62,460 nt of DNA, filler included, from an uncultured bacterium (GCA_964632485.1; 10 parts of 10 records of this genome joined end to end with filler, not necessarily neighbours in it), one strand, 5' to 3'; positions 1,637-62,460 are shown, counted from the first letter of the whole stretch. Translations and numbers: made by a program. Notes: generated from the sequence alone by a model not told the origin.

Positions 1637-1648
1637 GGATTGTTCTTC

Positions 1649-4300: not shown

Positions 4301-4325
4301 ATTCCTTTCCCTATATCTGGTCTGT

Positions 4326-11519: not shown

Positions 11520-11571
11520 TTTTGTTAAGTTGTTTTTAACCTCGTTCTCCATTTTCCGCTGAACCAATACA
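11520..11571 (-). mobile_element. IS end (TGTATTGGTTCAGCGGAAAATGGAGAACGAGG...), same as 30041-30092
   Basis: Exact reverse complement of 30041-30092; at a contig end; abuts a 5'-truncated ORF. Confidence 0.7.
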
Positions 11572-11576
11572 CCAGC

Positions 11577-11990: not shown

Positions 11991-12000
11991 GAGATTTTAT

Positions 12001-12678
12001 ATGATGTTGATAGCCCACTGGTTTTCAAAAATTAGTTCCACCCCTAAAAGCGCTATTTCCTTCAATTTGCCTCAACTCAATCGAATTATTGAACTTTTAG
12101 AGAGTAGCGAAGCAAACTTTTTCAAACAAGATAAATATATCCGGGACATTATGCTTTCATGGAATCAAATCTATGTGTATCGCTATGCGTTGATGGGTTC
12201 AATCCGGATCGTTTTCGGTAAATTACTGCATGAAATATTGATGCATTTTGATCCTAACGGCACGATACAAAAACAGAATCCTGAAGCCAAAAAGAAAAAC
12301 AAGATAAAGGACGTTGAAATTATTGAAGAATTATATAATGGGGGAAAAATTTTAGAAAATGATAAAGAATTATTGGATAGTATCCGAATTAAGCTCAATC
12401 TTGCCGTTCATTACGATCCTTACAATCCTCAGGGAATCCCAATCTCCAGCGAAAAGGTCAAAGTATGTTTTGACTCTTTGCTGGAAGGGTTTGGGTTTTA
12501 TCTACGTCTTAAAAATGTTATTCCGCCAGTTGAATTGAATGCAGGGACCTCACCTGGCGAGAAAAGAAAAAAAGAGAAAGATATTAAAGAAAAGCCGGGT
12601 AACAGAAAAGATATTTTTTACGGGATTATAATTGCGATTCTAATCATCGCATTACTATGGGTTCTGCTTAGTAAATAG
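12001..12678 (+). CDS. Hypothetical protein with DUF4145/HEPN-like motif and C-terminal membrane anchor
   Basis: LDSIRIKLNLAVH resembles the IR..GN.A.H motif; Lys-rich linker; terminal hydrophobic helix. Confidence 0.45.
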   Translation: MMLIAHWFSKISSTPKSAISFNLPQLNRIIELLESSEANFFKQDKYIRDIMLSWNQIYVYRYALMGSIRIVFGKLLHEILMHFDPNGTIQKQNPEAKKKNKIKDVEIIEELYNGGKILENDKELLDSIRIKLNLAVHYDPYNPQGIPISSEKVKVCFDSLLEGFGFYLRLKNVIPPVELNAGTSPGEKRKKEKDIKEKPGNRKDIFYGIIIAILIIALLWVLLSK

Positions 12679-13106
12679 AAACCAATTTAAAAACTAAATC
12701 CTTCGAGGTTTTGGAATGGTTTAATCTCTTGTATCGGATACAAAACAGTTACAACCCTGGCAATAATAATCAATGAGTTTTTAACCAATTCACGGACAAC
12801 AATCTCACCCAAATCGAAATATCCGGCTCAACATTCAGGGAAAGGCTGAGGGTAATGGTTAGCTCTATTGTAACTCATTTTACAAATTTATTAAAATTAA
12901 TTGATGAGGATTAGTTGACATTTATTGAAAAACAGCTATATTATATTGAGACGATGTCAATGTTGCCGAACCCAACTTTATAATATCCACAGATGTTGAA
13001 ATCAGGAGGATATCAGGAATGATTAAACGCAATCTGAACGAAAAAAACGAATCCATCATCGCCCCAAACAGGTATTCCCTTAAATACCGGGCATCTAAGC
13101 GGTATT

Positions 13107-16019: not shown

Positions 16020-16142
16020 AAATATGATGCCATTGATTTATAAATCCTCATGACGATATATGGTGATTATTGTCCCATGTCATTTGTGGATTTTAAATCA
16101 ACCGCTACCCAGGGCGATTATCGAAAGTATAGGACATAAAAA

Positions 16143-16170
16143 GCTGGGAGAAACAAGCGTTCCTCCCAGC
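16143..16170. terminator. Stem-loop between convergent cheBR and MCP genes
   Basis: GCTGGGAG...CTCCCAGC, flanked by an A run (T run on the minus strand). Confidence 0.6.
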
Positions 16171-16204
16171 GGAGACATATAAAACTATTTAGTTAAAGAT
16201 GCAA

Positions 16205-18136
16205 TTAATACTTGCCGAACTCATCATCATCTAATTGAATGATATCATTGGGTTTAACGACTTTACTCGATTTTTCGGAAATCATGCCGCGATTTTGTTC
16301 GCCGGATTTTAGGGATTTAACCTCAGATTGAGAGGCATTGAATCGTCCCTGGTTTCGGCCGGAATCAGCGGAACCGCTGATGCGGAACCGGTTGATCATG
16401 GCGCGCAACTGCACAGCCTGGCCGGTCAGCTCCTCTGACGCTGCGGCGCTTTCTTCGGCATTGGCGGTATTCTGCTGGGTTACCTGGGAAATCTGATTGA
16501 GACCCTGGTTGATTTGGGTGATCGCCTGGGCCTGTTCATTGGATGCGGCTGCGATTTCACTGACGACATCACCGGTTTTAGTCGAACCCGACACGATTTC
16601 CGCCAACACTTCATTGGTTTTGGAAGAGATTTGCTGGCCGTTCTCGGCGCGCTTTACCGCGCCCTCGATCATTTCGGCCGTTTCCTTGGCTGCCTTGGCG
16701 CTGCGGGCCGCCAAATTGCGCACTTCCTCGGCTACTACGGCAAAACCCTTGCCGTGCCGTCCCGCGCGAGCCGCTTCCACCGCTGCGTTCAAGGCCAGCA
16801 GATTGGTCTGGAACGCTATTTCGTCAATCACTTTAATAATCTTCGAAATATTCTTGCTCGACTCATTGATCTCGGTCATGGCCTTCATCAAATCCTTCAT
16901 CTGGGAATTGCCCTGGGTGGCTTGTTCCTTGGCTTTTTGCGCCAGAGTGTTGGCCATATTGGCATTTTCCGCATTGGTCTTGGTTTGCGCCGCCACTTCC
17001 TGCATGGAGCTGGAGGTTTCTTCCAACGACGCTGCCTGTTCGGTCGCGCCCTGGGACAAGGACTGGCTGGCGTTCGATACCTGTTGGGAGCCGGATGCTA
17101 CCTGGTCGATAGCCACTTGCACAGCCGCTAATATCTGATTGATGTTATCCAGCGAGTTATTGAGCGCGTTTTTAATCAGCGTATGGTCTCCGCGATATTC
17201 ACCGCGCACGCGGCCGGTTAAATCGCCCTGCTCCATCAACTGCAATACGTTCACCGCTTCCTTGATCGGTCCCAATACCGAATCGAGGGTCCCGTTAACG
17301 CCCTCCACCATCTTGCGATAATCGCCCTGGTGTNNNNNNNNNNTGGTGTTTCATGGCGTCAGCGCGCGTGTCCAGTTTGCCCTCTATCGCGGCTTTGCCG
17401 AGCATCAGCGCATCGGCGACCAACGCATTCACAGCGTCAATACACTGATTCAGGTTATTTTTAATTTCGTTGAAATCGCCTTTGTAGGTATCGGTGATCC
17501 GGGGCGGAATATCGCCTTTACTGATGCGGTCAACGTACTCGGCGGCCACGTTCAACGGCCCGATCACCGAATCAAGTGTCCCGTTGACGCCCTCTACGAT
17601 TTTGCGGAAATCGCCCTGATGTTTGGTTGCGTCGGCGCGCGTATCCAGCTTGCCATCTATCGCGGCTTTACTGAGCATCACCGCATCCATGATCAGAGCT
17701 TTCAGATTGGCGCGCACTTGTTCAATCGTATTGTTGATAAAGACTTTCTTTCCGGGGAATTTCTCCAGCGGCGCCTCGAAATTGCCTTCGCCGAATTCCT
17801 TGAGGCATGCCATCGCTTTTTTCTTGACTTCAATATGGCCAAATACCATCTTGTTGACGCCATCGGCCATCTGGCGATACGCGCCCTGGAATTTTTCGAC
17901 AGCAATCTTGACATCGATATCACCCGCGTCATGTTCTTTCGACATATTGTTCATTTCGCCGATCAAGCCGTTCAAGGAATCGATGCACCCATTCAGGTTA
18001 TTTTTAATTTCGTTGAAATCGCCTTTATAGTTATCCGTGATCCTGGGCGGGATATCGCCTTTACTGATGCGGTCAACGTACTCGGCGGCCACATTCAAGG
18101 GACCGATCACCGAATCGAGGGTACCGTTGACGCCTT
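16205..18136 (-). CDS. Methyl-accepting chemotaxis protein with repeated HAMP modules; 5' partial, split by an N gap
   Basis: [36 protein letters not shown] signalling hairpin; repeated [19 protein letters not shown] units; DDDEFGKY tail. Confidence 0.95.
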
Positions 18137-24216: not shown

Positions 24217-24327
24217 NNNNNNNNNNNNNNNNNNNNNNNNNNNNNNNNNNNNNNNNNNNNTTAATTAATTAANNNNNNNNNNNNNNNNNNNNNNNNNNNN
24301 NNNNNNNNNNNNNNNNATAAATTCTGT

Positions 24328-24672
24328 TTGTCAATTGAAAAAGGAAAATTTCAGAAAAAACTACTATCTGCGCGAAGCTTGAAATTATATTTACAAGATA
24401 AGGCAAATAATGTGGCGATTCGATCGGGCGGAATGCCATGCCCTGTTCTATTTGTATGGAGATGGCTGGATAATGATGGACGATTAGTACGCCAAACATT
24501 TCGCCCCAACCCTGCTGTCGAGATCGTGAAGGAGCTGATGGCGCCCGGTCAGGGAGTGCGTTTGCTCTTTAAACAGGATTGCGCCCGCGATGAGGATTGG
24601 GGTTACGAGATCGACACCCGCCATGAACCGGCAAAGGTTATAGAACTCAGACGGCTGTGGGTTGCGGCGTAG
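24328..24672 (+). CDS. Hypothetical protein or 3' gene fragment
   Basis: ORF only; the 3' half looks coding and the start is doubtful. Confidence 0.3.
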   Translation: MSIEKGKFQKKLLSARSLKLYLQDKANNVAIRSGGMPCPVLFVWRWLDNDGRLVRQTFRPNPAVEIVKELMAPGQGVRLLFKQDCARDEDWGYEIDTRHEPAKVIELRRLWVAA

Positions 24673-30194: not shown

Positions 30195-31184
30195 GATCGC
30201 GCGCCGTTCCCCCGTCGGCTCGAGAATCCGTTCCAGCTTCTTATGATCCGAAGCAATGTTGATGTCCAATACTTCCGCCGGGGCTTTATACCCATTCCGG
30301 TATTCACTCAAAAAATAGAGAACCATGTCGCTGTTGTAAACCCGTGTTTCCGCATCGGGCGAAAACAGATAGCCGTTGTAATAGTCCCGCATCTCCTGAA
30401 TATCGATGGGATAGCCCAGATCGTCGATCAGGTATTGAACCTCTTCTTCGGTGAAACCCTGCATCTCGTTGAAATCTCCGCGCAGGGTCAATGATTTGGC
30501 GATATTGAAGCCGCTGGTGAGGCTGTCGAGGGTGATGGGCGAGACCCCGGTGATGAAAATGCGCTCGACGATCGGACCCGACGCTTCTTTGATCACCTCA
30601 TAGAACTTGCGTATGAAACCGGTTTTCGAAACAACGTCCCGAAACAGGTCGTAATTGAAGCTGAAGAGTTCGTTGGCGAAATGGTCGTATTCGTCGATCA
30701 ACAGATAGATTTTCCGATCTCGCAGGTAGTGTTTACAATGCTCGACAAATTGGGTTAAAATCGATGCCGGCTCATCCGTAGGAGTAAATTGAAGGTCAGG
30801 AAGCTGATAAGCAGTGAGGAAATTGTTTAGCGGTCCAGTAATTTTTATGTTGAAACTGTGTTTCAGTGTCGCTTCGTCGCTGGTCTGGATACCACTGAAA
30901 TTGAAGCGCAGGATATAGTAGCTGTTACGCAAAGGCGTTGGGTTCCGCCCGATATAGAGATCGCCGAAAAGCCGATTGAAATCGTCCCGCCGCCGGATGT
31001 CATAATAGGTGGCCAATGTGTCGAGCCACAGCGATTTGCCGAATTTACGCGGCCGCAGGAAGACCAGATAGGGTTCGCCAAGGCTTTCCAGCTTTTCAAT
31101 ATACGGGGTTTTGTCGATGTAGTAATAATGCTGATCGCGAATTTGCGTGAAATACTGCAAACCGTACGGAATGCGTTTGGGCAT
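30195..31184 (-). CDS. AAA-ATPase-like family protein (usually fused to a PD-(D/E)XK nuclease); 3' partial
   Basis: YIDKT, FLRPRKFGKSL, LLIDEYDH and FITGVSP motifs; TTGACA-17-TATATT upstream. Confidence 0.9.
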
Positions 31185-31326
31185 GGCGACACTCCCGGTG
31201 AAAAGTGATGGCTTCCTATGCCAATATAATGCCGGTTCCGTCAGATGTCAAGCAAAAAAAATATGTCAGCCAATAGGCAGGGAGATGGCTTTCATCCCTC
31301 CGCCAGTTCATGGCGTTCTCTTTATC

Positions 31327-46941: not shown

Positions 46942-48495
46942 TCATTGTAAACTGTGTTTTTCCCAAATGAATTCCGCGATATTCCTCTCCTCGCTGCTGA
47001 ACAAAATTCCGATCAGATAGATTTCTTTCCCCTCAGATCGATATTTTTCGGCATACTTCTGCTCTTTAATTTGTCTGATCGGCGGTTCCGATGAATCGAC
47101 TTTGAACTCGAATATCATGATCGAGTTGGACGTTTTGAGCGTAATATCGATTCTGCCGCGGTTAGTGACCTCTTCGGCGATCAGCTCGAACCCGAGAGCG
47201 GCGAAAAAGGTGTACATCACGGACGCATAGTATCCCTCATAGCGGCTGATCGTGTTTTTAACATAGTTGTTGTAGGGAATCGACGCGAAAAATGAGGTTA
47301 ATGATTGGTTCAGAGCTTCAAATTCATGTTTGAGTATCTGGTTTTGTACCATCTGAATTCTGAGCTTGTTTTCATGTCTGGTATCAGTAAGAAAACTTTT
47401 AAACAGTGCATTCAAAGAAAGCTGAATTTCCAGGTTGGGGATGCGCATTTTATAGCTGAGCTCACCGGTGATTTGATTCTCTATTTTTTCTGCGAAAGTC
47501 AGATACCCGGTCTGCCAGAGCAGAGCGATCAGATCGATGTTCTCCACATCGATTGAATTAAGGGTCTCTTCTCCGACAATGCAATTTTCCAGGTTGGGGA
47601 TATAATAATCGCCTTCCTTGAGTTTATCGATCAGGAACTTGGGGCTGCCGGTCTCCCACCAGTAGTTTCGATATTGATTCTGATTGGAGATGAATAGTAA
47701 AATATCAAAAGGATTGTACAACGGCTCCCCAAAGTAATTGTAACCGTTGTACCATCGTTTCAGCATATCTACATTGACATCTTGTAAATGTTCCATGAAA
47801 TGAGCTTCTAAATCATTCTGCGTGTAGCCGGTAATCGCCGCGTAGTCCGAATTGATCGTAATATCCAACAGATTGTTCAACTGGCTGAACAGGTTGGTCT
47901 TGGAGAATTTGCTGACCCCGGTGATCAAGACGAATTTCAAATATGAATCCAGGTTTTTAATTATCCCGTAGAAATCCCGTAAGCTATCCCGAGCTTTGAG
48001 CGCCATTTCCGGGTCGGCGATATTATCTAAAATCGGTTTGTCGTACTCATCGATCAATATCGCGACCGGTTTTTGAAATTTGCTTGTCAACTCCTTGATC
48101 AGCTCATCGAAAAATAGAGGGTTAAAATCAGTATTTTCGCACTCAACTTCATATTGCCTCATGATTTCGGTCAACCGATAGCGGATATTTTTATCGATCC
48201 CAAATTCAGTTTGATAACCGCCACCGCTGAAATCGATTTTTATGACCGGATATGAGTCCTCCCAATCCCATTTATCCTCAATATAAAGGCCCTTGAACAG
48301 TGGCTTGTTCCCGTTGAAAATCTCGTGCAATGTATCGATAAACAGACTTTTTCCGAACCGTCGGGGACGGGAGAGGAAGTAATATTTACCCGTGGCGATG
48401 AGCTTATGCGCGAACCGGGTTTTATCAATATATACATAGTTTTCCTCAATGATTTCCCGTAGGTTTTGGATCCCGATCGGCAATTTTTTAAGCAT
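46942..48495 (-). CDS. AAA-ATPase-like + PD-(D/E)XK nuclease protein, copy 1
   Basis: FLSRPRRFGKSL, LIDEYDKP, EGYYAS and GRID...FEFK...QI..YA motifs. Confidence 0.92.
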   Translation of the reverse strand: MLKKLPIGIQNLREIIEENYVYIDKTRFAHKLIATGKYYFLSRPRRFGKSLFIDTLHEIFNGNKPLFKGLYIEDKWDWEDSYPVIKIDFSGGGYQTEFGIDKNIRYRLTEIMRQYEVECENTDFNPLFFDELIKELTSKFQKPVAILIDEYDKPILDNIADPEMALKARDSLRDFYGIIKNLDSYLKFVLITGVSKFSKTNLFSQLNNLLDITINSDYAAITGYTQNDLEAHFMEHLQDVNVDMLKRWYNGYNYFGEPLYNPFDILLFISNQNQYRNYWWETGSPKFLIDKLKEGDYYIPNLENCIVGEETLNSIDVENIDLIALLWQTGYLTFAEKIENQITGELSYKMRIPNLEIQLSLNALFKSFLTDTRHENKLRIQMVQNQILKHEFEALNQSLTSFFASIPYNNYVKNTISRYEGYYASVMYTFFAALGFELIAEEVTNRGRIDITLKTSNSIMIFEFKVDSSEPPIRQIKEQKYAEKYRSEGKEIYLIGILFSSEERNIAEFIWEKHSLQ

Positions 48496-48591
48496 CGGTT
48501 AATTCCTTGGTTATGGATCAGCGCGAATATATGTGTTACTCAATCAATCTCATTAAAATATAATCAGATAAATTCTGTTTGTCAATTGAAA
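46951..48591. repeat. 1641-bp direct repeat copy 1 (copy 2 at 50513-52153)
   Basis: Identical translations and identical DNA wherever compared; offset 3562. Confidence 0.95.
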
Positions 48592-48774
48592 TCTGTTTAC
48601 CAACTATTATAATCGAATTTCCCAAATTTGCAAGTCAATATTCAAGGAAATCGAGCTTTGTTTCCTATAACTTTTATCGACATGAAATTCTTTACCAAAT
48701 CTTAACTTGCTTTTATAGAGAGGTGGATTTATTTTAAATCATGTCTGAAAAAGCGGCGCGTCATATCCGCTACC

Positions 48775-50400
48775 ATGAAGAAAGGAAATGAAGTGTTTCA
48801 AAGCATTGGCAACACATTAGCCGGAATAGGACTGTTTTTGACCGGCATTCGCCTGATCACCAACAGTTTTAAAGGCATCACCAATCGCAGGCTGCGCCGG
48901 TTTTTTCTGAAATGGACGCAAAAGGGGCTGGTCAATGCCGCATGGGGAACGCTGATCGGGGCATTGACTCAAAGCAGCTCCAGCGCTACCTTCATCCTCG
49001 CGGGAATGCTTTCCGGCGGGTTGATTACCTTTATCAATGCCGCTATAACCCTGACCTGGGTGGAAATCGGCACGACTCTGCTGGTTTTTTTAGCATCCAT
49101 TAAAATGAAGCTGATCATTATCTACTTGCTGGCCGTGGCTGGTTTCTTTTTCAGTATGGATAAAAAGGGAAAAAATTCAACCCTGGTACACGCTCTTCTC
49201 GGGATCGGCCTGCTGCTTTTCGGCTTCGATCTGCTCAAAAGCGGCGCCATGCAGCTTACTGACACGCTGTGGATACGGCAATTAATCCAACGCGCGCAAT
49301 CTTCGTTTCTGCCTTTGTTTTTTTTAGGTGGCGCATTGCGCCTGACAAGCCAGTCATCTTCAGCCGTCACCATCCTGGTGATGCCATTGACGCTGGCGGG
49401 TATTTTCAACCTGGAGCAAAGTCTGTTGGTCGTTTTTGGCACCGCATTGGGTTCCGGAATATCAACTGCGCTTCTTTCCATGGATATCAGCGGCGCTCCA
49501 CGCAAACTCAGCATTTATAAAATGATCAGCGACCTGAGCGCGAGCGCGGCGCTAATGGGGCTCTTGATCATCGAAAAATTTAGCGGCCTGCCCCTGATCA
49601 AGGCGTTGATCCAGCGAGCCGCGACCCTCCCTGAACTGCAAATCTCCATTGCGTTTCTATTACTCAAGCTCGCGCCGATTGTCTTGCTGTTGCCCAATCT
49701 TGCGTGGATTGAAAAAATAATTGACCGCATAGCGCCCCGAATTGAACACGAAAGCCTTTCCCAACCGGAATATCTAAGCGAAACCGCGCTGGAAAATCCC
49801 GATACCGCCTTCTTCCTAATCGAAAAGGAACAAAACCGAATTATTGACCGGCTCCCCGAATACCCGGGAGAATTACGCGATGAGGCTCGTCTCGCCAATC
49901 CCGATATCATTACTGCCGAAACCTATCATTTAGCTGATCTCAAATTGCTGGAAGAAATTCGACATTACATATCCCAGCTTCACTATCAATCCCTTTCCTA
50001 CCAAGCCTCGGAGCAATTACTGATAATTCAAAACCGGAATTTATTCCTGTCATCGCTGGAGGCAACGGTCAATCAAATCGTTCAAACCTCATTGAATGAA
50101 TCAGTGTCGCCTTCATTGCTTCAATTGCGGGGAAATTTGATTGAATCTTTGCACATGCTCCTCGATTCCATGCGGGAAATATGCAGGAACAGAGACGCCG
50201 AGGAATTGGACATGTTATCGCGATTAACTGATAACCGCAATGGAATCATGGAAAATATTCGAAAAAAATATATATCGTTGGAGACGGAGATGGAAGCGGA
50301 ACACCGGATGTTTCTGCTGATTATGACTGATCTGTTCCAACGGGCGGTGTGGCTGATTCATGAAAACATTTATTTAATCAACATCGAAATCAATTCATAA
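48775..50400 (+). CDS. Na/Pi cotransporter family protein with PhoU-like C-terminus
   Basis: GIGLFLTG, two QSSS motifs, multiple TM helices. Confidence 0.9.
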   Translation: MKKGNEVFQSIGNTLAGIGLFLTGIRLITNSFKGITNRRLRRFFLKWTQKGLVNAAWGTLIGALTQSSSSATFILAGMLSGGLITFINAAITLTWVEIGTTLLVFLASIKMKLIIIYLLAVAGFFFSMDKKGKNSTLVHALLGIGLLLFGFDLLKSGAMQLTDTLWIRQLIQRAQSSFLPLFFLGGALRLTSQSSSAVTILVMPLTLAGIFNLEQSLLVVFGTALGSGISTALLSMDISGAPRKLSIYKMISDLSASAALMGLLIIEKFSGLPLIKALIQRAATLPELQISIAFLLLKLAPIVLLLPNLAWIEKIIDRIAPRIEHESLSQPEYLSETALENPDTAFFLIEKEQNRIIDRLPEYPGELRDEARLANPDIITAETYHLADLKLLEEIRHYISQLHYQSLSYQASEQLLIIQNRNLFLSSLEATVNQIVQTSLNESVSPSLLQLRGNLIESLHMLLDSMREICRNRDAEELDMLSRLTDNRNGIMENIRKKYISLETEMEAEHRMFLLIMTDLFQRAVWLIHENIYLINIEINS

Positions 50401-50476
50401 ACAATGCCGGAGTCGTCACTTATTGAACATCCGCAGATAGGCAACGATTTTCCGACGAAGGCGGTCTCGGCGCTTT

Positions 50477-52057
50477 TCAATTCCCGGACTTTTTAATCGC
50501 CAGCTTCAACTCACTGTGTTTTTCCCAAATGAATTCCGCGATATTCCTCTCCTCGCTGCTGAACAAAATTCCGATCAGATAGATTTCTTTCCCCTCAGAT
50601 CGATATTTTTCGGCATACTTCTGCTCTTTAATTTGTCTGATCGGCGGTTCCGATGAATCGACTTTGAACTCGAATATCATGATCGAGTTGGACGTTTTGA
50701 GCGTAATATCGATTCTGCCGCGGTTAGTGACCTCTTCGGCGATCAGCTCGAACCCGAGAGCGGCGAAAAAGGTGTACATCACGGACGCATAGTATCCCTC
50801 ATAGCGGCTGATCGTGTTTTTAACATAGTTGTTGTAGGGAATCGACGCGAAAAATGAGGTTAATGATTGGTTCAGAGCTTCAAATTCATGTTTGAGTATC
50901 TGGTTTTGTACCATCTGAATTCTGAGCTTGTTTTCATGTCTGGTATCAGTAAGAAAACTTTTAAACAGTGCATTCAAAGAAAGCTGAATTTCCAGGTTGG
51001 GGATGCGCATTTTATAGCTGAGCTCACCGGTGATTTGATTCTCTATTTTTTCTGCGAAAGTCAGATACCCGGTCTGCCAGAGCAGAGCGATCAGATCGAT
51101 GTTCTCCACATCGATTGAATTAAGGGTCTCTTCTCCGACAATGCAATTTTCCAGGTTGGGGATATAATAATCGCCTTCCTTGAGTTTATCGATCAGGAAC
51201 TTGGGGCTGCCGGTCTCCCACCAGTAGTTTCGATATTGATTCTGATTGGAGATGAATAGTAAAATATCAAAAGGATTGTACAACGGCTCCCCAAAGTAAT
51301 TGTAACCGTTGTACCATCGTTTCAGCATATCTACATTGACATCTTGTAAATGTTCCATGAAATGAGCTTCTAAATCATTCTGCGTGTAGCCGGTAATCGC
51401 CGCGTAGTCCGAATTGATCGTAATATCCAACAGATTGTTCAACTGGCTGAACAGGTTGGTCTTGGAGAATTTGCTGACCCCGGTGATCAAGACGAATTTC
51501 AAATATGAATCCAGGTTTTTAATTATCCCGTAGAAATCCCGTAAGCTATCCCGAGCTTTGAGCGCCATTTCCGGGTCGGCGATATTATCTAAAATCGGTT
51601 TGTCGTACTCATCGATCAATATCGCGACCGGTTTTTGAAATTTGCTTGTCAACTCCTTGATCAGCTCATCGAAAAATAGAGGGTTAAAATCAGTATTTTC
51701 GCACTCAACTTCATATTGCCTCATGATTTCGGTCAACCGATAGCGGATATTTTTATCGATCCCAAATTCAGTTTGATAACCGCCACCGCTGAAATCGATT
51801 TTTATGACCGGATATGAGTCCTCCCAATCCCATTTATCCTCAATATAAAGGCCCTTGAACAGTGGCTTGTTCCCGTTGAAAATCTCGTGCAATGTATCGA
51901 TAAACAGACTTTTTCCGAACCGTCGGGGACGGGAGAGGAAGTAATATTTACCCGTGGCGATGAGCTTATGCGCGAACCGGGTTTTATCAATATATACATA
52001 GTTTTCCTCAATGATTTCCCGTAGGTTTTGGATCCCGATCGGCAATTTTTTAAGCAT
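50477..52057 (-). CDS. AAA-ATPase-like + PD-(D/E)XK nuclease protein, copy 2
   Basis: Identical to copy 1 up to WEKHS, with a different tail. Confidence 0.92.
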   Translation of the reverse strand: MLKKLPIGIQNLREIIEENYVYIDKTRFAHKLIATGKYYFLSRPRRFGKSLFIDTLHEIFNGNKPLFKGLYIEDKWDWEDSYPVIKIDFSGGGYQTEFGIDKNIRYRLTEIMRQYEVECENTDFNPLFFDELIKELTSKFQKPVAILIDEYDKPILDNIADPEMALKARDSLRDFYGIIKNLDSYLKFVLITGVSKFSKTNLFSQLNNLLDITINSDYAAITGYTQNDLEAHFMEHLQDVNVDMLKRWYNGYNYFGEPLYNPFDILLFISNQNQYRNYWWETGSPKFLIDKLKEGDYYIPNLENCIVGEETLNSIDVENIDLIALLWQTGYLTFAEKIENQITGELSYKMRIPNLEIQLSLNALFKSFLTDTRHENKLRIQMVQNQILKHEFEALNQSLTSFFASIPYNNYVKNTISRYEGYYASVMYTFFAALGFELIAEEVTNRGRIDITLKTSNSIMIFEFKVDSSEPPIRQIKEQKYAEKYRSEGKEIYLIGILFSSEERNIAEFIWEKHSELKLAIKKSGN

Positions 52058-52153
52058 CGGTTAATTCCTTGGTTATGGATCAGCGCGAATATATGTGTTA
52101 CTCAATCAATCTCATTAAAATATAATCAGATAAATTCTGTTTGTCAATTGAAA
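50513..52153. repeat. 1641-bp direct repeat copy 2
   Basis: See copy 1. Confidence 0.95.
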
Positions 52154-52284
52154 AAGGAAAATTTCAGAAAAAACTACTATCTGCNNNNNNNNNNNNNNNN
52201 NNNNNNNNNNNNNNNNNNNNNNNNNNNNTTAATTAATTAANNNNNNNNNNNNNNNNNNNNNNNNNNNNNNNNNNNNNNNNNNNN

Positions 52285-54275: not shown

Positions 54276-56579
54276 TTAAAAGTTATAATCCACGGTCACA
54301 TTGACGGTACGCTGCAGCAAATGATTATTCATGGGCAACATGAATTGACTGTTATCATAAACATATTCCCGGGTGGGAATGTTCTGGCGATCGTAAATAT
54401 TCAAAATCTGTAATGATAAAATCAATTGGCGATCATGGGAAAAAGTGAATTCCCGGAGAATGCCGACATCGAGGTTAAAATAAAAAGGCAATTCTCCCCA
54501 ATAAACACGCGAAGTCGAGTAGTATTTATCCGCTTTGTGATAATTCGGGAATCCGCTGCCGACCACAAATTTCAGCGAGGTTTTCCATTCGGGAAAATAT
54601 CTCATCTGGTCCTGGGCGAAAATCGTCAGGGTATGAGTTTGCGCCGTAGGACGCGGGATATAACCCTTGCCGTCCCCTTTTACATTCTCCCGGGAAATCA
54701 AATAACTGTAGGTGATCCATGAATAGAGATTAGCCACCAGATTGCCGCCCATGTAGCAATCCAGGCCGCAGCCATAACCCCGCGCGTCATTCCGGCCGCT
54801 GTAAACCAGTTGCAGATCGTCTATGTAGTAGGAAATCAGATGATATAAATCCTTGTAGTAAGCCTCGATCTTAAAGATGCGACGGGTCTTGTCGAGATGT
54901 TTGATTCCCGCCACATATTCGACCGATCTCTGCGATTTTAAGCGGCGCAGGTTGTCGAAAGCGAACGGCAAGCCCGCCTGCTTGTATTCCGGCGGCTGGG
55001 CGATCAGGCCGATGCCCGCGTAGGTGGCGGTTACCGGAGTCCATTGATAATGCAGTTTTACCCGGGGCATTACCAGCATTTCATCATTTACGCCAGAGTG
55101 ACAGGCGCGGATTCCGGCTTTAAACCAGCTAATCGGGCTGATATTCCAGCGGTAACTCGCGAAAGCCGCCGCTTTATGCCAGTCATAGCCTTTTCGTTCA
55201 TCCAGTTCATGGATCGTCTCTGAAAGTCCCTCATGCGTTATCGTTTTGAACTCGGCAAGGGTATCCCTGACCAGGAGCCATTCCCACTCGATCCCGACAT
55301 GGACGCGGTTGTCCGCCTCGAATTGAAGTTTGTAATTGTACAGATCCGCTTGATAATCATCATAAAGATATTCATAGGAATACATCAGAGTATCGTTATC
55401 ATGTTTCCAAATACCATAGTCAAATTGATAATATTCCTTGAATACAGCGGTTTTTATTTGGTTTTTATTACACTCAATCTGTCGATTGAAGGCGGTGAAT
55501 TGACGGACAAAAATATTTTCACCCAGTTTCAAGCTCGTCTTGAGGGCATAGAGATACGTGTTGAAATCGGCACGTTCCTGACCCATATAATCAAAATAAT
55601 AAGCTTGACACATTTTAGGTTTCAATCTTTTATACGAAGGCAATAGATCAAATTGCTTAACATTTTGAATCGTCAAACCCTGGAAAGTGAGTCGGGAATT
55701 TAAATGCCAGGTAAACGCGACCTGCGCGTCATAGAAACGCGGCGAATAATCGCCCTTCAGATCATGAGTCCGATAAAACCAGGAAAGTCCCGCATACCTC
55801 ATCCCCACGACCACTTGCAGCGTGGGAGTCAGTTGAGTATTGAAAGCCAGATTGAAATCAAGCAGACTGGCATGGATATCCAGTGAAAAGCGTTCACTAT
55901 TCTCCTGGAAATATTCCACCTCGTTGACCGAGGAAAGTTTGTCGTTATGATAAACTTCCAGTCCGCCGGTATAGAGCAGATAATCCTTGAGCATGGATGG
56001 ATTGGCCAGACCGACATTTTCATGCATGGCCTTGCGGATCGTAACGGGATGGAAAACCTCGATACCATTTATGTAAAACAGGTTTTCGTCGAAATTGCCG
56101 CCATGGACATTATAGCGGTTGCTCATTTCGTTATTGGAAGTGACGCCGGGCAGGATTTTGATTGTCTGGTAGATGGAGTTGAACATGAAGGGCATACGAT
56201 TTTGAATTTTCTTCTCAATCACGTAGTTGAACGGCTGGACCGACGCATTGACCTGGGCGATCACGGAGACTGTATCGAGAGAAATTGAGCGGGTGGATAA
56301 TAGTATTGTCATGGAAGTTGCCTTAACTTCGAGTATCGTATCCTGATATGCAATGTGGGATACGCGGAGTTTTGTATTCATTGGTATTTTTTCCAGGACA
56401 AAATTACCCGCGCTGTCCGTGGTAGTCCCCTTTAACTTATAAAGTGATAAAATATTGACCCGCGCGATAGGTTCGCCGCTGGACTGATCCCGGATCACCC
56501 CGGTAACTGTGCGGGCCAATAAGATCGTGGAAAATAAAAATATTATTATGATTACTTGCAGTTTACTTTGCATAAACAC
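54276..56579 (-). CDS. TonB-dependent receptor-like protein with N-terminal carboxypeptidase-regulatory-like domain (module A)
   Basis: VTGVIRD, ILPGVTSNNEMS.RYNVHGGNFDENLFYINGIEV plug region; terminal DYNF. Confidence 0.9.
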   Translation of the reverse strand: MFMQSKLQVIIIIFLFSTILLARTVTGVIRDQSSGEPIARVNILSLYKLKGTTTDSAGNFVLEKIPMNTKLRVSHIAYQDTILEVKATSMTILLSTRSISLDTVSVIAQVNASVQPFNYVIEKKIQNRMPFMFNSIYQTIKILPGVTSNNEMSNRYNVHGGNFDENLFYINGIEVFHPVTIRKAMHENVGLANPSMLKDYLLYTGGLEVYHNDKLSSVNEVEYFQENSERFSLDIHASLLDFNLAFNTQLTPTLQVVVGMRYAGLSWFYRTHDLKGDYSPRFYDAQVAFTWHLNSRLTFQGLTIQNVKQFDLLPSYKRLKPKMCQAYYFDYMGQERADFNTYLYALKTSLKLGENIFVRQFTAFNRQIECNKNQIKTAVFKEYYQFDYGIWKHDNDTLMYSYEYLYDDYQADLYNYKLQFEADNRVHVGIEWEWLLVRDTLAEFKTITHEGLSETIHELDERKGYDWHKAAAFASYRWNISPISWFKAGIRACHSGVNDEMLVMPRVKLHYQWTPVTATYAGIGLIAQPPEYKQAGLPFAFDNLRRLKSQRSVEYVAGIKHLDKTRRIFKIEAYYKDLYHLISYYIDDLQLVYSGRNDARGYGCGLDCYMGGNLVANLYSWITYSYLISRENVKGDGKGYIPRPTAQTHTLTIFAQDQMRYFPEWKTSLKFVVGSGFPNYHKADKYYSTSRVYWGELPFYFNLDVGILREFTFSHDRQLILSLQILNIYDRQNIPTREYVYDNSQFMLPMNNHLLQRTVNVTVDYNF

Positions 56580-57189: not shown

Positions 57190-57466
57190 TTAATTAATAA
57201 CTGTAAGATCATTCGTAAGCGCTTTTTTAATTTCAAAATATTCCATGTGTCCATTTTTTAAATATAATAAACCATAATCAACTCTAATAACATATAACCC
57301 ACTTGGTATAAGCGCTCCACTTGGATATCTACAATTCCACATTTCAAATTCAAAAACTTCATTAATCAGTTCGGGGAATTTATGAACAATAGTTTCTTTA
57401 ACTAATTGACTATTAACCCAACTTTCGTATTTTAGAAAAAATAGGATTGAATAGCAATTACTTACC
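57190..57466 (-). CDS. C-terminus of a FlgD-Ig-like protein (module A), 5' partial; absent from the ORF track
   Basis: Manual translation ...QLVKETIVHKFPELINEVFEFEMWNCRYPSGALIPSGLYVIRVDYG...LTVIN*. Confidence 0.65.
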
Positions 57467-57590
57467 NNNNNNNNNNNNNNNNNNNNNNNNNNNNNNNNNN
57501 NNNNNNNNNNTTAATTAATTAANNNNNNNNNNNNNNNNNNNNNNNNNNNNNNNNNNNNNNNNNNNNACTAAAAACATAAAGGATAGAAAG

Positions 57591-58364
57591 ATGAAGACGA
57601 TGATATATACTCTGATGATCGTGTTATGGGCTGGATTCAGCATGATTCAGGCGGCGCCTCCCGGAGGCGGCTACAACGGCTGGGGCCAACTATCCGCGGT
57701 TGTGATCGTTAAAGATTGCGATAACGATCCAATAGTTGGAATTCCGGTAACATTCCATGCCGAGATAAACGGAACAATCGATGGCAGTACGGTTCTATTG
57801 ACAGGCTATACCAATGACGATGGCTTTGTGATCTTTTCACAAACACTCAATTACTGGGGATGGGAAGAAGATCATTATATTCGAACAACAATTAACGATG
57901 AAGTCTTTACAATGTTAGCTGAGAATACTGAAAGCTCAACATCTTACAGTATTCAAGCTAAACATTGGGTAGTAAATACAAGTGTCAAAATTAAATGGGA
58001 TCAGACTCCATGGCCAAATCCTGTAACTTTATATGGACCTAAAGATATTTATGGAAGGTTCGAAGTATCACATTTGAGTGATTGGATGGTCGCGAGAGGA
58101 ACATGGAGATTCATTATCGTAAATGACCTAGGGCAACTTATCCGGACATCTTGGGTAAATTCAGGTACCATTTGCAATGGTATTTTCACTCTCAAAGTAT
58201 GGGATGGCTTGGATAGCAATGGTAATGTGCCGCCAAATGGTGTCTATCTAGTTTGCCCATCTTTAGGTTATTCGTATGACCCTGGATTTAATTGGGGCGA
58301 ACTTCCTCGGAACGGTGGATTTGCTACTCAGTATGAACAAGTAACAATATTTAGAGGTAGATAA
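57591..58364 (+). CDS. Secreted protein with Ig-like N-domain and FlgD-Ig-like C-domain (module B)
   Basis: Signal peptide; GQLIRT...WDGLDSNGNVPPNGVYLV. Confidence 0.8.
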   Translation: MKTMIYTLMIVLWAGFSMIQAAPPGGGYNGWGQLSAVVIVKDCDNDPIVGIPVTFHAEINGTIDGSTVLLTGYTNDDGFVIFSQTLNYWGWEEDHYIRTTINDEVFTMLAENTESSTSYSIQAKHWVVNTSVKIKWDQTPWPNPVTLYGPKDIYGRFEVSHLSDWMVARGTWRFIIVNDLGQLIRTSWVNSGTICNGIFTLKVWDGLDSNGNVPPNGVYLVCPSLGYSYDPGFNWGELPRNGGFATQYEQVTIFRGR

Positions 58365-58377
58365 GTAAGCTATGAAA

Positions 58378-58419
58378 GCTGCCGTTCATTCATCAATAGA
58401 ATGTTGAATGAACGGTGGC
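58378..58419 (+). promoter_or_regulatory. Intergenic stem-loop, module B
   Basis: GCTGCCGTTCATTCA...TGAATGAACGGTGGC with no T tail. Confidence 0.7.
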
Positions 58420-58434
58420 GGAAAGGAAACAAAC

Positions 58435-58854
58435 ATGTTTGTACAGCGAAAACGACGAATATTCATTGTCACTTTAATAATTTTTTATGGATCGTTTTGC
58501 TTTTATTGCAGCAAAGATGAGGATCAGGAAACAACTTTGATATTGCCGGGGTGCCATATTTTTCAACCTGCTAATAACGATACGGTTCAAGTCGGCGAAG
58601 CCGTGGATTTTTATTGCGGCTATACGATAGGGAGTTTTCCAATCACAGAAATCATATTGAACTTCGGCGATTCCACGGCAAGCTGGGATAGCGCCGCCAT
58701 TTCGCAATTTGATCCCCGAAATCCAATTATTAAACTAAAGCACGTGTATCAGGATACTGGCGCCTATATGATCCAACTTTATCTTTATGATAGGCGAAAT
58801 GGAGCGATGGCAGCCTCTACCGTCGTTGTCAGGAATTCGGCAAATTATGATTAG
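58435..58854 (+). CDS. PKD/Ig-like lipoprotein (module B)
   Basis: GAAAGGA RBS; FYC-SK; IFQPANNDT; NFGD; KHVYQDTGAY. Confidence 0.78.
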   Translation: MFVQRKRRIFIVTLIIFYGSFCFYCSKDEDQETTLILPGCHIFQPANNDTVQVGEAVDFYCGYTIGSFPITEIILNFGDSTASWDSAAISQFDPRNPIIKLKHVYQDTGAYMIQLYLYDRRNGAMAASTVVVRNSANYD

Positions 58855-61137
58855 ATTTTTCATTTTTATAGAGGTTTGCTCAATGGCTATTGGCGCCGGG
58901 TTTGCAGCCCTTCACGCGTCGACCATTACCGGCGTGATTCGGGACCTGAACAGCGGGGAAGCGATCGCCCGCGTCAACGTCCTCTCCCTCTANNNNNNNN
59001 NNCCGGGCGGTTCGCGCTCGAGGGAATTCCCCCGAACACCCGCATCCGCATCACCCATATCGCCTACCAGGACACAACCCTGGCGGCGGATGAGGATTTC
59101 ATGGACATCCAATTGATTCCCCGGGCGATTCCCATCGACACGGTCACCGTGATCGCCCGCGTGACTACCGCTCCCCAGCCGTTCCATTACGTCATCGAAC
59201 GCCAGATCCAAAACCGCATGCCCTTCATGTTCAACTCCATCTACCAGGCGCTCAAAATTCTGCCCGGCGTCACCTCCAACAATGAAATGAGCAACCGCTA
59301 CAATGTCCATGGCGGCAACTTCGATGAAAACCTCTTTTACATCAACGGCATCGAGGTTTTCCATCCCGTTACGGTCCGCAAGGCCATGCACGAAAACGTC
59401 GGTTTGGCCAACTCCTTCATGCTCGAGGATTATCTGCTCTATACCGGCGGCCTGGATGTCCATCACAACGACAAACTATCGTCGGTCAACGAAGTGGAAT
59501 ATTTCGACGAACATACGGAACGGATCACCCTGGACGTTCATGCCAGCCTGCTCGATTTCAATCTGGCCTGCAATGCGCCGCTATCGTCCAATCTGCAATT
59601 GCTGGCGGGACTCCGCTATGCGGGATTGTCCTATTTCTACCGCACGCATGATCTGAAAGGCAACTACTCGCCGCGCTTATACGACGCGCAGGCGCTGCTC
59701 ACCTGGAACCCACTCCCCGCTTTCACCCTGCAGGGTTTGGTGATCCAAAACCTGAAACAGTTTGACCTACTACCCACTTATAAACGGCTCAGGCCGCGAC
59801 CCGGCAGGGGTTACTATTTTGATTATGAAGGCAGGGATCAGGCGGATTTCAATACCAGTCTTTATTCCGTCAAGGCGAGTTGGAAACCGCGCGAAAATCT
59901 GATCGTCCGTCAATTCGCCGCTTTCAACCTTCAACATGAAGTCAACAAAAGCAACATCGAAACCGCTGTATTCAAGGATCATTATTATTTCGATTATGGG
60001 ATTTGGAAGCAGGACGACGATACGCTGATGTATTCGTATGAAACCCTTTACGATGATTATCGGGCGGACCTTTTCTGCTGGAAGCTTCAAATGGAAATCG
60101 GGAACAGCTTTCATGCCGGGGTTGAAGGGGAATGGTCCGATATTCGCGACACGCTCGCGGAATTCAAAACGATCCGCCACGACAGCCTGTCCGAAACCGT
60201 CAACGAACTGGACGAGCGCAAGGCCTACGATTGGCGTAAGGCCGCGGCCTTCGCGAGCTATCGCTGGCATGTCTCGCCGATCAGTTGGGTACAGGCTGGT
60301 ATCCGCGCCTACCATTGCGGGTTGAACGATGAAATCATGCTGATGCCGCGCATGAAGCTGCATTACCAGTTCAGCCCGGTAAGCTCTTTCTACGCGGGAA
60401 TCGGCCTGATCGCCCAGCCGCCGGAATACAAGCAGGCGGGCTTGCCGTTCGCCTATGACAACCTGCTCCGCTTAAAATCGCAGAGATCGGTCGAATATGT
60501 GGTGGGAATCAAACATCTCGACAATATCCGGCGCATTTTCAAGATCGAAGTCTATTATAAGGACTTGCATGACCTGATTTCGTACTATATCGACGATCTG
60601 CAACTGGTCTACAGCGGCCGCAACGATTCGCGAGGCTATGCCTGCGGCCTCGACGCCTATATGGGCGGCAATCTGGTGGCCAATCTCTATTCCTGGATCA
60701 CTTACAGCTTTCTGCTCTCCGAAGAGAACATCGAGGGGGACGGCAAGGGTTATATCCCGCGTCCTACGGCGCAAACTCATACCCTGACGTTTTTCGCCCA
60801 GGACCAGATGAGATATTTTCCCGAATGGAAAACCTCGCTGAAATTTGTAATCGGCAGCGGATTTCCTGATTATCATAGAGAAGACAAGTATTTTACGTTT
60901 TCGCGCGTCTATCGCGGCAGGCTGCCTTTCTATTTCAACCTGGATGTGGGCATTTCCCGCGAATTCAATTTCGCCCACGACCGGCAACTGGTCGTTTCGC
61001 TGCAAATTCTCAATATTTATGACCGACAGAATATTCCGACGCGGGAATATGTCTATGACAATTCGCAATTCCCGCTGCCCATGAACAACCATCTCCTGCA
61101 GCGAACGGCCAATCTGACGATTGACTACAATTTTTAA
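58847..61137 (+). CDS. TonB-dependent receptor-like protein (module B), split by an N gap
   Basis: Close paralog of 54276-56579; the N-terminus ITGVIRD..IARVNVLSL precedes the gap. Confidence 0.9.
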
Positions 61138-61291
61138 ATGCGCGGGGAGTCGGTTTTGACCAAGAGCTCGTGTCCTCTCCCGCGCCCATTACCTCCTTGC
61201 GGAGTTCTGCCGCTGGGTTTAGATTCATTTTTCGATCCTGTCAGGTTAAGCTATTGACAAAAAAACACCCAATTACCAAAAGGATAGTTAA

Positions 61292-61984
61292 ATGAAACGC
61301 TATTTGTTATTGATCCTGATGATGATCTTCAGCCTGCTGTTTTTTTGCAGCGATAAAGATTCTCAATCTTCATTGGTCGATGATACCAACAATTCAAGTG
61401 TAATGGAAAAAAAAGGCAAGAAAATTGAAATCACGACAAATGATTATGTTGTGATAGAAGAATTGAAGAACAAAAAAGACAAAAAACCAATGGAAAAAGC
61501 CAAACTGATTGAATTGGAATTGAAGTATTTCAGCATGGCCATGGCGTTGCTGGTTACGGAGGAAGATGTTTGCTCCCTGTTGAAAAACAATATCGCCAAG
61601 CAATTTGACGGGGATTATGATGTATTGTGGGGTACTTTAAAAGATGTGAAGCTCAATCGCGGTCAGTTTAAGAAAATGCTGGAGGCATGTTTTGATGAAT
61701 CGGCGAAAAAGTTGCTGAAAGCGGAGGATTTTGATGCGATTAAACTTCTCAATCTTGCAATACCCGTACAATTTGAGAACTGGGATGGCATATCACCATT
61801 GCTGGTTACGTATTGTCCGATAACGATCAATGATATTGATGTACAAACTCTGGAAGCTTTTGACGCTGAATTGAACGTTACGATACTCGATGCGCAAAAG
61901 GAACCCGATTTTCCGGTATTAGTGATCGGTATGAATGAGCGTGTCGATGAGAATATGATATGCCCCCCGAAAATTGGAAGTTGA
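61292..61984 (+). pseudogene. DUF3103-like lipoprotein truncated by an IS3 end
   Basis: FFC lipobox-like site; paralog of 21462-22631; similarity stops after NERVD at the IS end. Confidence 0.7.
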
Positions 61985-62073
61985 AAAGTGTGAGAAAAAG
62001 TGTTATAATAGGAAGAAGAACCTGAAAGGAGCAGATCATGAAATCATCCCGATTTTCGGTTGAGCAGGTCACG
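61956..62073 (+). mobile_element. IS3-family (IS407-like) left end with orfA start, truncated
   Basis: TGATATGCCCCCCGAAAATTGGA terminus; AAAGGAG RBS and MKSSRFSVEQV at 62038. Confidence 0.8.
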
Positions 62074-62123
62074 CCCAACATAATCGGACGTTTCGCTTCA
62101 ATGAAATACGGAAACCTAAATTT

Positions 62124-62408
62124 TTGATGTTAATCCTATCACGAAATAATTGCGTCAAATGCATCCGACATTTTGAGGAGAAACTGGCCAGCCAACTGGA
62201 GACGTATCCTGACTTGAAACTATACGTCATCGCCGGGGAATTGAATGTCGGTACTATTGGCCGTTTGATGAAAAAGTATGAATTTGATTATCAGGATATG
62301 TTGATCAATCGCGATTTTAATTTTATCCGGCGGACGGCGATGGATCGATTACCGGCTTTGTTATTGATTGACAGGGAATTGAACAAAATGAACTATTTTA
62401 AATTGTAA
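62124..62408 (+). pseudogene. Thioredoxin-fold (CxxC) protein, 5'-truncated fragment
   Basis: CVKC and PALLLID motifs. Confidence 0.5.
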
Positions 62409-62460
62409 CGGATATTCCAAGCGCATTGAATCGATAATCCATTGGGATTATGAAAGTTAG

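Follow-up and report, generated by a model that had tools for sequence, protein, structure and literature searches.

Apparently homogenised direct copies of a DUF1703 gene around a divergent Na/Pi-cotransporter-family gene in an uncultured bacterium

RecA-dependent duplication and amplification is known between long direct repeats, for example rrn operons or copies of insertion sequences (IS). IS26 encodes a DDE transposase, has 14-bp inverted ends and occurs in many copies; IS26-type units can give rise to tandem amplification and to a circle that holds the cargo and one copy, and no target duplication surrounds the whole. The IS6 family and amplification by IS26 are treated in PMC7986276, a review, and PMC7530762, respectively. 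Genes of the DUF1703 family also occur in many copies: Cardinium hertigii cCpun carries 25 DUF1703 paralogs with an average identity of 39% (Siozios et al. 2019, PMC6387759), and the passages of that report on this family present the paralogs as divergent and recombining. Here we describe a locus where one DUF1703 paralog probably stands in near-identical direct copies on either side of an unrelated transporter-like gene on the chromosome.

The locus is the complete 5243-bp contig C52, positions 46942-52184 of the window, that is, of the whole 62,460-nucleotide stretch that was analysed, in which ten contigs are strung together by 9 spacers (100-base N/TTAATTAATTAA). It belongs to a draft metagenome-assembled genome with 66 contigs (4.45 Mb, 97.95% complete). 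Sequence comparison bore out the claim of the earlier note that a 1641-bp unit is exactly duplicated here: positions 46951-48591 (repeat R, copy 1) equal positions 50513-52153 (copy 2) over 1641 bp in direct orientation with a spacing of 3562 bp. R consists of the DUF1703 gene minus its last 2 codons and 96 bp upstream including a promoter-like site. The complete genes lie on the minus strand at 46942-48495 (517 aa) and 50477-52057 (526 aa, the last 11 residues and the stop coming from the tail of the intervening segment), and the promoter-like TTGACA-17-TATATT sites, with 11/12 consensus matches, lie on the same strand at 48557-48585 and 52119-52147. As had been described, six R bases precede the -35 box in both copies, and the other boundary falls in the last codons, with the stop supplied by the flank (...WEKHSLQ* versus ...WEKHSELKLAIKKSGN*).

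The edges of R are sharp. The bases directly outside it differ (left a/c, right t/a), and its outer flanks (...TTGTAA and AAGGAA...) and inner flanks (TCTGTT... and ...CAACTC) form no target-site duplication. Local alignments of the ends and flanks gave no terminal inverted repeat, flank similarity or target duplication, with all scores within those of 100 shuffles (for instance, the first 60 bp of R against the reverse complement of the last 60 bp scored 7, the shuffle mean being 6.6 and the maximum 9), in agreement with the previous statement that neither inverted repeats nor a target duplication are evident. Neither microhomology nor filler was found at the R junctions, and a terminator scan returned nothing at the 3' end of either DUF1703 copy. 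No other match to R longer than 90 bp is present in the assembly, where further copies could lie in collapsed repeats.

An exact repeat around a cargo gene on such a tiny draft contig is what an assembler path through a repeat gives, so its evaluation needs the neighbouring contigs and reads. The first 55 bases of C52, consisting of a 9-bp left flank (46942-46950, which gives copy 1 the codons LQ and the stop) and the next 46 bp, are exactly the end of contig C43. The last 55 bases (52130-52184), consisting of 24 bp of R and a 31-bp right flank (52154-52184), are exactly the start of contig C48 (24317-24371), and the end sequences of C52 are common to no other contigs. R is thus a single segment of a k=55 graph that was passed through twice (C43-R-B-R-C48, in which B is the intervening segment): one path leads in from C43 and another from the end of B, and the paths out lead into B and into C48. 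The 100% identity of its copies is therefore partly by construction. The earlier remark that copy 1 has only 9 unique bp before the contig end is right as to C52 itself, but these overlaps make the outer flanks of both copies known. We guess that the 9 and 31 extra flank bases reflect path trimming to a k-base overlap. C48 (24317-30094, plus strand), which in the graph adjoins copy 2 on its right, has genes including those of a Fib_succ_major protein and a beta-lactamase-fold protein. The transposase-like ORFs of C43 are incomplete and come from two IS families (the N-terminal half of an IS630 and a C-terminal part of an IS1634 type); each is present as a single copy, and about 157 bp separate R from the edge of the repeat-marked region to which they belong. 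Their ends, bracketed only via small repeats in common with C53, C2, C37 and C16, showed no convincing inverted repeats.

If the contig were a pure assembly artefact or chimera, R would adjoin both sides of B in no molecule at all, as a short contig with a repeat at both ends and identity by construction would allow. Among the unitigs of X3, an independent sample, however, record 19 (48533-49076) bridges the 48591/48592 junction from R into B, and record 23 (50300-51121) bridges the 50512/50513 junction from B into R. These records enter B from the end of R and leave it into the start of R, indicating that R adjoins both ends of B in some molecule; the artefact is thereby largely refuted, and we regard it as most improbable. 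The junction between R and C48 is bridged in another sample by X2 record 16 (51432-52184 plus 111 further letters). The unitigs of sample X1 stop precisely at 46951 and 52153, and those of B extend k-1 = 30 letters into R. Among the unitig records listed, none bears on the junction between the left flank and R or on an 'empty' C43-R-C48 form, and no read or contig spans an entire R copy plus both its flanks.

The depth of the listed unitigs of R exceeded that of B in all three samples (X1: 11.6-13.4 in the outer thirds of R versus 3.2-5.7 in B, ratio about 2.8; X2: 6.1-10 versus 2.7-4.8, ratio about 2.0; X3: 4.1-7.45 versus 2.6-5.3, ratio about 1.4). In the coverage check proposed for the locus, R lay at about 1.4-2.8 times the depth of B, albeit with noise and with contig depths that are not a copy number. 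A run X4 contained only two short pieces of R.

The R|B and B|R junctions are as compatible with a circle of R and B as with R-B-R, and a fixed pair cannot be told, by graph or unitig depth, from a C43-R-C48 chromosome accompanied by an R+B circle in similar copy number. The chromosome could accordingly hold one R, with B on a 3562-bp R+B circle, or cells with and without B could be mixed, R-B-R being the assembler's default path through the loop. Both forms give the same four junctions, the two entries and two exits of R in the k=55 graph; the R:B ratio of X1 lies above the 2.0 expected from a fixed R-B-R, and X2 record 16 passes from R into C48 directly, with no branch. Absent branches are, however, expected in X2 and X3 at a depth of about 4, and a circle would need a copy number near that of the chromosome in two unrelated samples. 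Moreover, the only domains found on it are PF09820/PF08011 and PF02690, none of them from a recognisable replication protein, and it matches the genome in base composition (16% and 48% of random genome windows are at least as far from the genome in tetranucleotide distance as R and B, respectively). We consider a circle or such heterogeneity unlikely.

Sequence variation was informative about the age of the pair. The strain in X2 and X3 differs from the window at 13/600 and 14/609 positions of R and at only 6/1565 positions of B, and its R unitigs are still single with about twice the depth of B. Of the changed codons in R, 17/22 are synonymous, indicating that the DUF1703 gene is under constraint. 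In X1, the unitigs of the middle third of R are only about 7 deep, some with differences; one set has six variant sites in common with the X2 allele, whereas the B unitigs of X1 carry no differences. The real R copies, or co-occurring strains, probably differ in this middle third, and the pattern is a mosaic, as expected from partial conversion.

A one-off, recent illegitimate duplication would instead start from a native C43-R-B-C48 order, with the 1641-bp block pasted 112 bp downstream of the stop of the Na/Pi gene and still young enough to be alike with no ongoing conversion. The sharp edges with unrelated sequence directly outside would fit this. So would the left side of the locus, where the tail of copy 1 (HSLQ*) resembles that of P0002, the closest outside homolog (74% identical to the R protein, tail HSDQ*), and where the last 6 bp of copy 1 form a -35-like box before a perfect TATAAT upstream of the Na/Pi gene (TTGAAA-16-TATAAT, 48586-48613, plus strand, a consensus match only, the first hexamer being in R and the second in B). 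Both are hints that copy 1 with B is the native context and copy 2 is derived. P0002 itself lies on a 3556-bp contig, near the 3562-bp R+B period, and is missing from the loci of the metagenome scan. Against a recent event, the junctions are free of microhomology and filler, and the same junctions occur in the second strain, in which R differs by about 1-2% yet remains collapsed at double depth. This indicates that the pair predates the divergence of the strains and that its copies changed together, and a one-off recent duplication seems improbable to us.

The protein encoded by R matches PF09820 (AAA-ATPase_like) over residues 6-203 in both copies (E 1.7e-66, full profile 1-201) and PF08011 (PDDEXK_9) over residues 419-508 (E 8.5e-24). 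G48, K49, S50, D149, E150, D450, E463 and K465 are invariant across 31 aligned sequences, and we read these columns as Walker A, Walker B and D...E-x-K motifs. No transposase domain was found in R (PF09820 and PF08011 being its only domains, with no NCBIfam transposase model), the protein had no match in PADLOC-DB 2.0 (0 families at E <= 0.01), PHROGs or NCBIfam, and a sequence search of the PDB gave nothing meaningful. A predicted structure model (pLDDT 80) had its best PDB fold matches in Apaf-1, Cdc6/Orc1, NLRC4, PAB2304, CED-4 and Avs3 (Foldseek E 1e-4 to 6e-4 to 5juy, 2qby, 4kxf and 2qen), with low TM scores of 0.24-0.35. We regard the protein as a probable nuclease switched by ATP, perhaps in the manner of STAND/ORC-like proteins. 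The STAND/ORC-Cdc6-type NTPases (Apaf-1, NLRC4, CED-4, archaeal Cdc6/Orc1, Avs3 and RdrA) match the predicted fold of residues 1 to about 400 with E values of 1e-4 to 2e-3, and Avs proteins likewise have a nuclease domain fused to the NTPase. TM scores (0.18-0.35) and sequence identity (10-13%) to them are low, however, and the R protein has neither a repeat-type sensor domain nor a PADLOC match. A part in genetic conflict is our guess.

The description of the family as multi-copy and unclear in function agreed with what we found, and with PMC6387759 in its passages on these genes. There are 15 family loci in this genome (14 by tblastn and one fragment on C22) in three subfamilies, and 11/15 are found no more than 600 bp from where a contig ends, compared with 1.8% of the genome. 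Only the R pair is alike; the other 13 loci are at most 40% identical to the R protein, save a 55-aa fragment on C26 at 65%. A third, divergent member had been placed at 30195-31184; there is indeed a distant PF09820 paralog there (minus strand, N-terminal 330 aa, 27% identical to the R protein), but it is truncated by the start of another contig, C49, and lies outside the duplication. The paralogs on C37 and C56 are 83% identical overall with a 549-bp patch at 95%. In a pair found elsewhere, L019/L020, the gene bodies are near-identical between unrelated flanks and the edges of similarity lie inside the ORF, which is the signature of gene conversion and not of element ends. Tandem copies occur in 8/79 metagenome loci, and in other pairs (leaving aside three with continuing flank synteny) the near-identity edges are scattered, falling at -67 to +389 relative to the start and at -86 to +165 relative to the stop.

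The earlier note had further proposed a self-contained mobile or amplifiable unit that can bracket cargo. In its strongest form, the DUF1703 promoter and ORF would be an autonomous, gene-sized selfish unit moved by its own ATP-driven PD-(D/E)XK nuclease, needing neither inverted ends nor a target duplication, and the pair would be a fresh insertion that exposes the true ends, one lying 6 bp past the -35 box and the other 2 codons short of the stop, and that shows how the unit can bracket a neighbouring gene and thereby mobilise or amplify it. If true, self-mobility would explain the spread of a very large, unexplained family, and this locus would give the ends of the element. The copied block is almost exactly a promoter plus a conserved ORF, and other paralogs in this genome also have their own conserved promoter; relatives of R at 55-59% identity are spread across many phyla as solitary genes amid unrelated housekeeping neighbours (145/210 candidate neighbour ORFs scanned), and R is nearer to them than to the full-length paralogs of its own genome. 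Nevertheless, only two copies, 1.9 kb apart, are found in a 98%-complete genome; near-identity edges vary between pairs, with no conserved ends, and in L019/L020 fall inside the ORF. The family is rare on plasmids (68/72,556 records) and present in viral contigs only as distant homologs (114 stretches, at most 52% identical), the R protein matches nothing in PHROGs or PADLOC, and a literature search under the family identifiers found no report of mobility. With no inverted ends, target duplication, microhomology or transposase domain found either, the self-contained mobile unit is unsupported and, in our view, very unlikely.

We favour a chromosome that reads C43-R-B-R-C48, in which a real, near-identical pair is probably kept alike by gene conversion and has no transposition machinery of its own. 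A 1.9-kb segment with a divergent Na/Pi gene would lie between the members of this pair, both in the same orientation and both derived from a single DUF1703 paralog, homologous recombination between the copies would maintain their likeness, as is usual in the DUF1703 family, and RecA-type crossing-over between them could, as a by-product, yield a 3562-bp R+B circle and loss or amplification of the transporter gene. What stands of the earlier proposal is thus the bracket, backed by independent unitigs and about twofold depth, with amplification or deletion expected from ordinary recombination. Besides the limits of graph and depth, further observations weigh against this preferred reading. Diverged homology should be found outside the identical block of an old, homogenised pair, and none is detectable; the block stops at most 6 bp from the -35 box and 2 codons short of the stop, a tighter fit than expected from random segmental duplication; and conversion leaves the origin of the second R copy unexplained, since neither junction has microhomology.

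The segment that would be lost or amplified, B (48592-50512, 1921 bp), contains a Na/Pi-cotransporter-family gene (48775-50400, plus strand, 541 aa) whose product matches PF02690 in two stretches (E 1.5e-31) and NF037997 at 73.9 bits (cut-off 50); a PhoU domain, present in most of its distant relatives, was not reported. The protein is a near-orphan: its closest relative among 5.8 billion proteins is 37% identical, and no close relatives of the gene were found in species genomes. No Na/Pi gene lies beside R homologs in 79 metagenome loci or among the 145/210 neighbour ORFs scanned, which were the nearer ones. In two related genomes, one of the same family (G001) and one of the same order (G002), the Na/Pi gene has matches of 23-24% identity at best, the C43 glycosidase matches through its secretion tail only, and the C48 beta-lactamase-fold protein has 24-31% matches; in the absence of orthologs there, the ancestral gene order is not inferable. 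A DNA search of 40 'relatives' gave nothing outside G000. In the preferred arrangement, a near-orphan transporter-like gene would thus sit in a segment losable or amplifiable by recombination.

Compared with known systems, the locus resembles a composite transposon, the analogy drawn at the outset, in outline only. Such a transposon has flanking IS with a transposase, terminal inverted repeats, a target duplication and further copies elsewhere, none of which was found for R, and the analogy is unsupported. With the IS26-type pseudo-compound transposon or translocatable unit it shares two direct copies around cargo; R differs in lacking a transposase domain, inverted ends and a third copy, and looping-out would need host homologous recombination. 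It is also like the amplifiable segments between direct repeats, one gene lying between 1.6-kb repeats that are 1.9 kb apart, except that no amplification was seen: the R:B depth does not fall below 2 in X1 or X2. The DUF1703 expansion of cCpun, in the passages of PMC6387759 on it, has the same two-domain protein and many divergent paralogs per genome, as here, and its partial genes at scaffold borders are matched here by 11/15 loci near contig ends, its paralog recombination by the C37/C56 patch and the L019/L020 pair. Those passages stress an absence of homogenisation, whereas here one paralog is present as two near-identical copies, with an unrelated gene between them, and the pair looks homogenised. 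To a family known as multi-copy and recombining, this locus adds one case of apparently homogenised copies.

The 1641-bp block R at 46951–48591 recurred at 50513–52153, identical and in the same orientation, as the earlier note had reported. The bases bordering the two copies were unlike each other at both left and right ends, and local alignment of their flanks revealed no similarity (scores inside the range of 100 shuffles). The claimed lack of terminal inverted repeats and target duplication also held: the R ends were not inverted repeats, with all local-alignment scores within 100 shuffles, and no microhomology was visible at either junction when the surrounding bases were inspected. Both copies contained the promoter-like sequence TTGACA-17-TATATT (11 of 12 matches) with 6 bp of R upstream, and the two protein tails were those previously described. 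Repeats of 500 bp or more with identity of 95% or above numbered only three in the whole genome: the R pair, a patch common to contigs C37 and C56, and a tandem repeat on C21. The C21 repeat (locus L171, 1–9257 and 9438–18694, outside the window) was 9.3 kb long at the contig start (99.2% identity, period 9437), duplicated an ORF of 754 aa together with portions of very long ORFs (at least 2099 aa), and was unrelated to R.

The R protein (517 aa in copy 1, 526 aa in copy 2) matched PF09820 (AAA-ATPase_like) and PF08011 (PDDEXK_9), which by domain content is the DUF1703 architecture. In an alignment with 30 homologs, the GKS, DE and D...ExK columns were invariant. In the family, the conserved C-terminus stopped at ...F-x-W-E-K followed by 0–8 variable residues, indicating that R holds the complete conserved protein and that the flank-supplied tails are immaterial. 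More than 8000 relatives were found in many phyla (nearest outside homolog 74% identical, others at most 60%), and PADLOC, PHROGs and NCBIfam held no matching model. The predicted structure (pLDDT 80) matched the STAND/ORC-type NTPases Apaf-1, Cdc6/Orc1, NLRC4, PAB2304, CED-4 and Avs3 at E ~1e-4 and low TM.

The draft genome consisted of 66 contigs (4.45 Mb, 97.95% complete), ten small ones being joined in the window by nine N/TTAATTAATTAA spacers; besides these 100-base inter-contig spacers, 10-base N gaps (scaffold joins) lay inside C45, C46 and C54 (window 1–18136 and 57567–62460). Positions 46942–52184 were the entire contig C52 (5243 bp), whose first 55 bases were the last 55 of C43 and whose last 55 were the first 55 of C48 (window 24317–24371). 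Across all contigs just two more links of this kind occurred, joining C61 with C63 and with C66, again over exactly 55 bases, which points to assembly from a de Bruijn graph with k=55. R was a single segment of such a graph, entered by two paths and left by two, and appears twice in C52. Since one segment was written twice, minor differences between the real copies would be lost, and the exactness of the repeat is in part a product of assembly.

Junctions and depths were evaluated on contigs (unitigs), not raw reads, of public runs, of which X1 was the best carrier of the sequence and may be a source sample, and X2 and X3 represented one different sample. X1 unitigs began exactly at 46951 and stopped exactly at 52153, and those of the unique segment B (48592–50512) extended 30 letters (k−1) into R at both sides, one letter below the bridging criterion; such ends at the R borders are a graph-branch pattern. 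The R|B and B|R junctions were bridged in X3 (record 19, 48533–49076, and record 23, 50300–51121) and R|C48 in X2 (record 16, 51432–52184 plus 111 letters), while the junction of R with its outer left flank appeared in none of the records listed. Among the same records, depths of R and B were 11.6–13.4 (outer thirds up to 14) and 3.2–5.7 in X1, 6.1–10 and 2.7–4.8 in X2, and 4.1–7.45 and 2.6–5.3 in X3, so that R was roughly twice as deep as B, a noisy ratio of contig depths and not a copy number. Thus, neither the missing junction support nor the single-copy coverage that the earlier note had named as refuting its duplication was found. At least some molecule carries R at both ends of B, and a pure assembly artefact is hardly credible. 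A chromosome with one copy, accompanied by a 3562-bp circle, would use the same four junctions as the order C43-R-B-R-C48; we regard such a circle, or a mixed population, as unlikely. Probably, two DUF1703 copies really lie on the chromosome, one at each side of the Na/Pi-like gene of B; the chromosome order would then be C43-R-B-R-C48, recombination would keep the two copies alike, and as a side effect the gene between them could be looped out, lost or amplified.

In the X2/X3 strain, R differed from the window at 13/600, 14/609 and 5/535 positions, and B at only 6/1565. The R unitigs of these runs were single and deeper than B, indicating that the R copies are alike again in that strain, the two having changed in concert. 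Among the changed R codons, 17/22 were synonymous (25 sites listed; 23 further sites lay outside the count), which marks the DUF1703 gene as functional and constrained. In X1, the middle third of R was covered by two unitig sets ~7 deep (outer thirds 11.6–14), one of which carried variants, six being those of the X2 allele; the B unitigs were unbroken with zero differences. The simplest reading of these partial tables is that in X1 the two copies, or two co-occurring strains differing only in R, differ over one patch, which may be a mosaic of the kind made by gene conversion. A young, one-off duplication of R, as a different origin of the likeness, seems improbable to us.

The product of B is a PF02690 protein of 541 aa, and in a search of 5.8 billion proteins its best relative was 37% identical; another, distant Na/Pi gene lay on C8, and the composition of both R and B was that of the genome. 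At copy 1, a promoter-like site (48586–48613, plus strand, 11 of 12 matches) spanned the R|B junction and faced the Na/Pi gene. Its −35-like TTGAAA was the last 6 bp of R, back to back with R's own TTGACA, and its perfect TATAAT lay in B, 160 nt upstream of the start codon; no equivalent −10 box was present after copy 2. The copy 1 tail HSLQ* also resembled HSDQ* of the 74% homolog. On these two features, each a weak hint, the arrangement of copy 1 beside B may be the older one. The reported absence of a transposase was true of C52 and failed for its neighbourhood, where a C43 region with two transposase fragments had its edge ~157 bp left of copy 1. The fragments (locus L007, 11478–12726, minus strand) overlapped, one being the N-terminal half of an IS630-like transposase and the other a C-terminal part of an IS1634-like one, and each was single-copy; short repeats at their borders recurred at the C53 end (window ~57413–57465) and on C2, C37 and C16. 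These remnants stop short of R and cannot account for it. Separately, two inverted repeats, 1327 and 610 nt long (77–78%; window 54276–56316 versus 59097–61137), were two diverged paralogous genes on C53 and C54 (767-aa ORF, 54276–56579, minus strand).

The genome contained 15 DUF1703 loci (14 by tblastn, plus a fragment on C22 by blastn) in three DNA-level subfamilies, with R the sole member of its own. Full-length paralogs were at most 40% identical to the R protein and a 55-aa fragment at the C26 end was 65% identical; the paralogs on C37 and C56 had a common 549-bp patch at at least 95%, and were elsewhere 83% alike. Each paralog had its own strong promoter-like site. In one subfamily (C60, C56, C1, C34, C37 and C26, outside the window) a conserved TTGCAT-17/18-TATATTAC site ended only ~5–8 nt before the ATG, which suggests leaderless transcripts; a second (C13, C2, C6, C62 and C49, the last at window 30195–31300) had TTGACA-17-TATATTG followed by a leader of ~45 nt, likewise conserved. 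Of the 15 loci, 11 were no farther than 600 bp from the end of a contig, in positions making up 1.8% of the genome, indicating that the family breaks assembly of this genome.

We also compared 79 metagenome loci bearing homologs of the R subfamily. Two or three tandem copies occurred at 8/79, and a Na/Pi gene at 0/79. Among the 145 of 210 neighbour ORFs scanned, most were unrelated housekeeping genes, with a minority of IS genes and of 'conflict-type' genes for other nucleases or ATPases. On one contig (L024, 6665–10674), a WecG-type glycosyltransferase gene lay between two diverged DUF1703 genes of the same orientation, 56% and 32% identical to R, a bracket-like layout with old copies and a PDDEXK_2 gene upstream; on another (L075), a 2969-bp direct repeat with a DDE transposase gene (1–2969 and 3267–6235, 98.8%) adjoined a homolog of R with which the contig ended. 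Loci L019 and L020 shared a near-identical gene body between unrelated flanks, with identity borders within the ORF at both ends, a pattern that would be the outcome of gene conversion between paralogs rather than the ends of a mobile element. The self-contained mobile unit proposed earlier is therefore very unlikely, kept alive by the tight gene size of the duplicated block and its blunt junctions. In the published account, DUF1703 genes form many divergent, recombining paralogs with partial genes at scaffold borders and no assigned function (PMC6387759). The paralogs here and at the metagenome loci agree with that picture, in which the R pair is a fresh instance of behaviour already known for the family.
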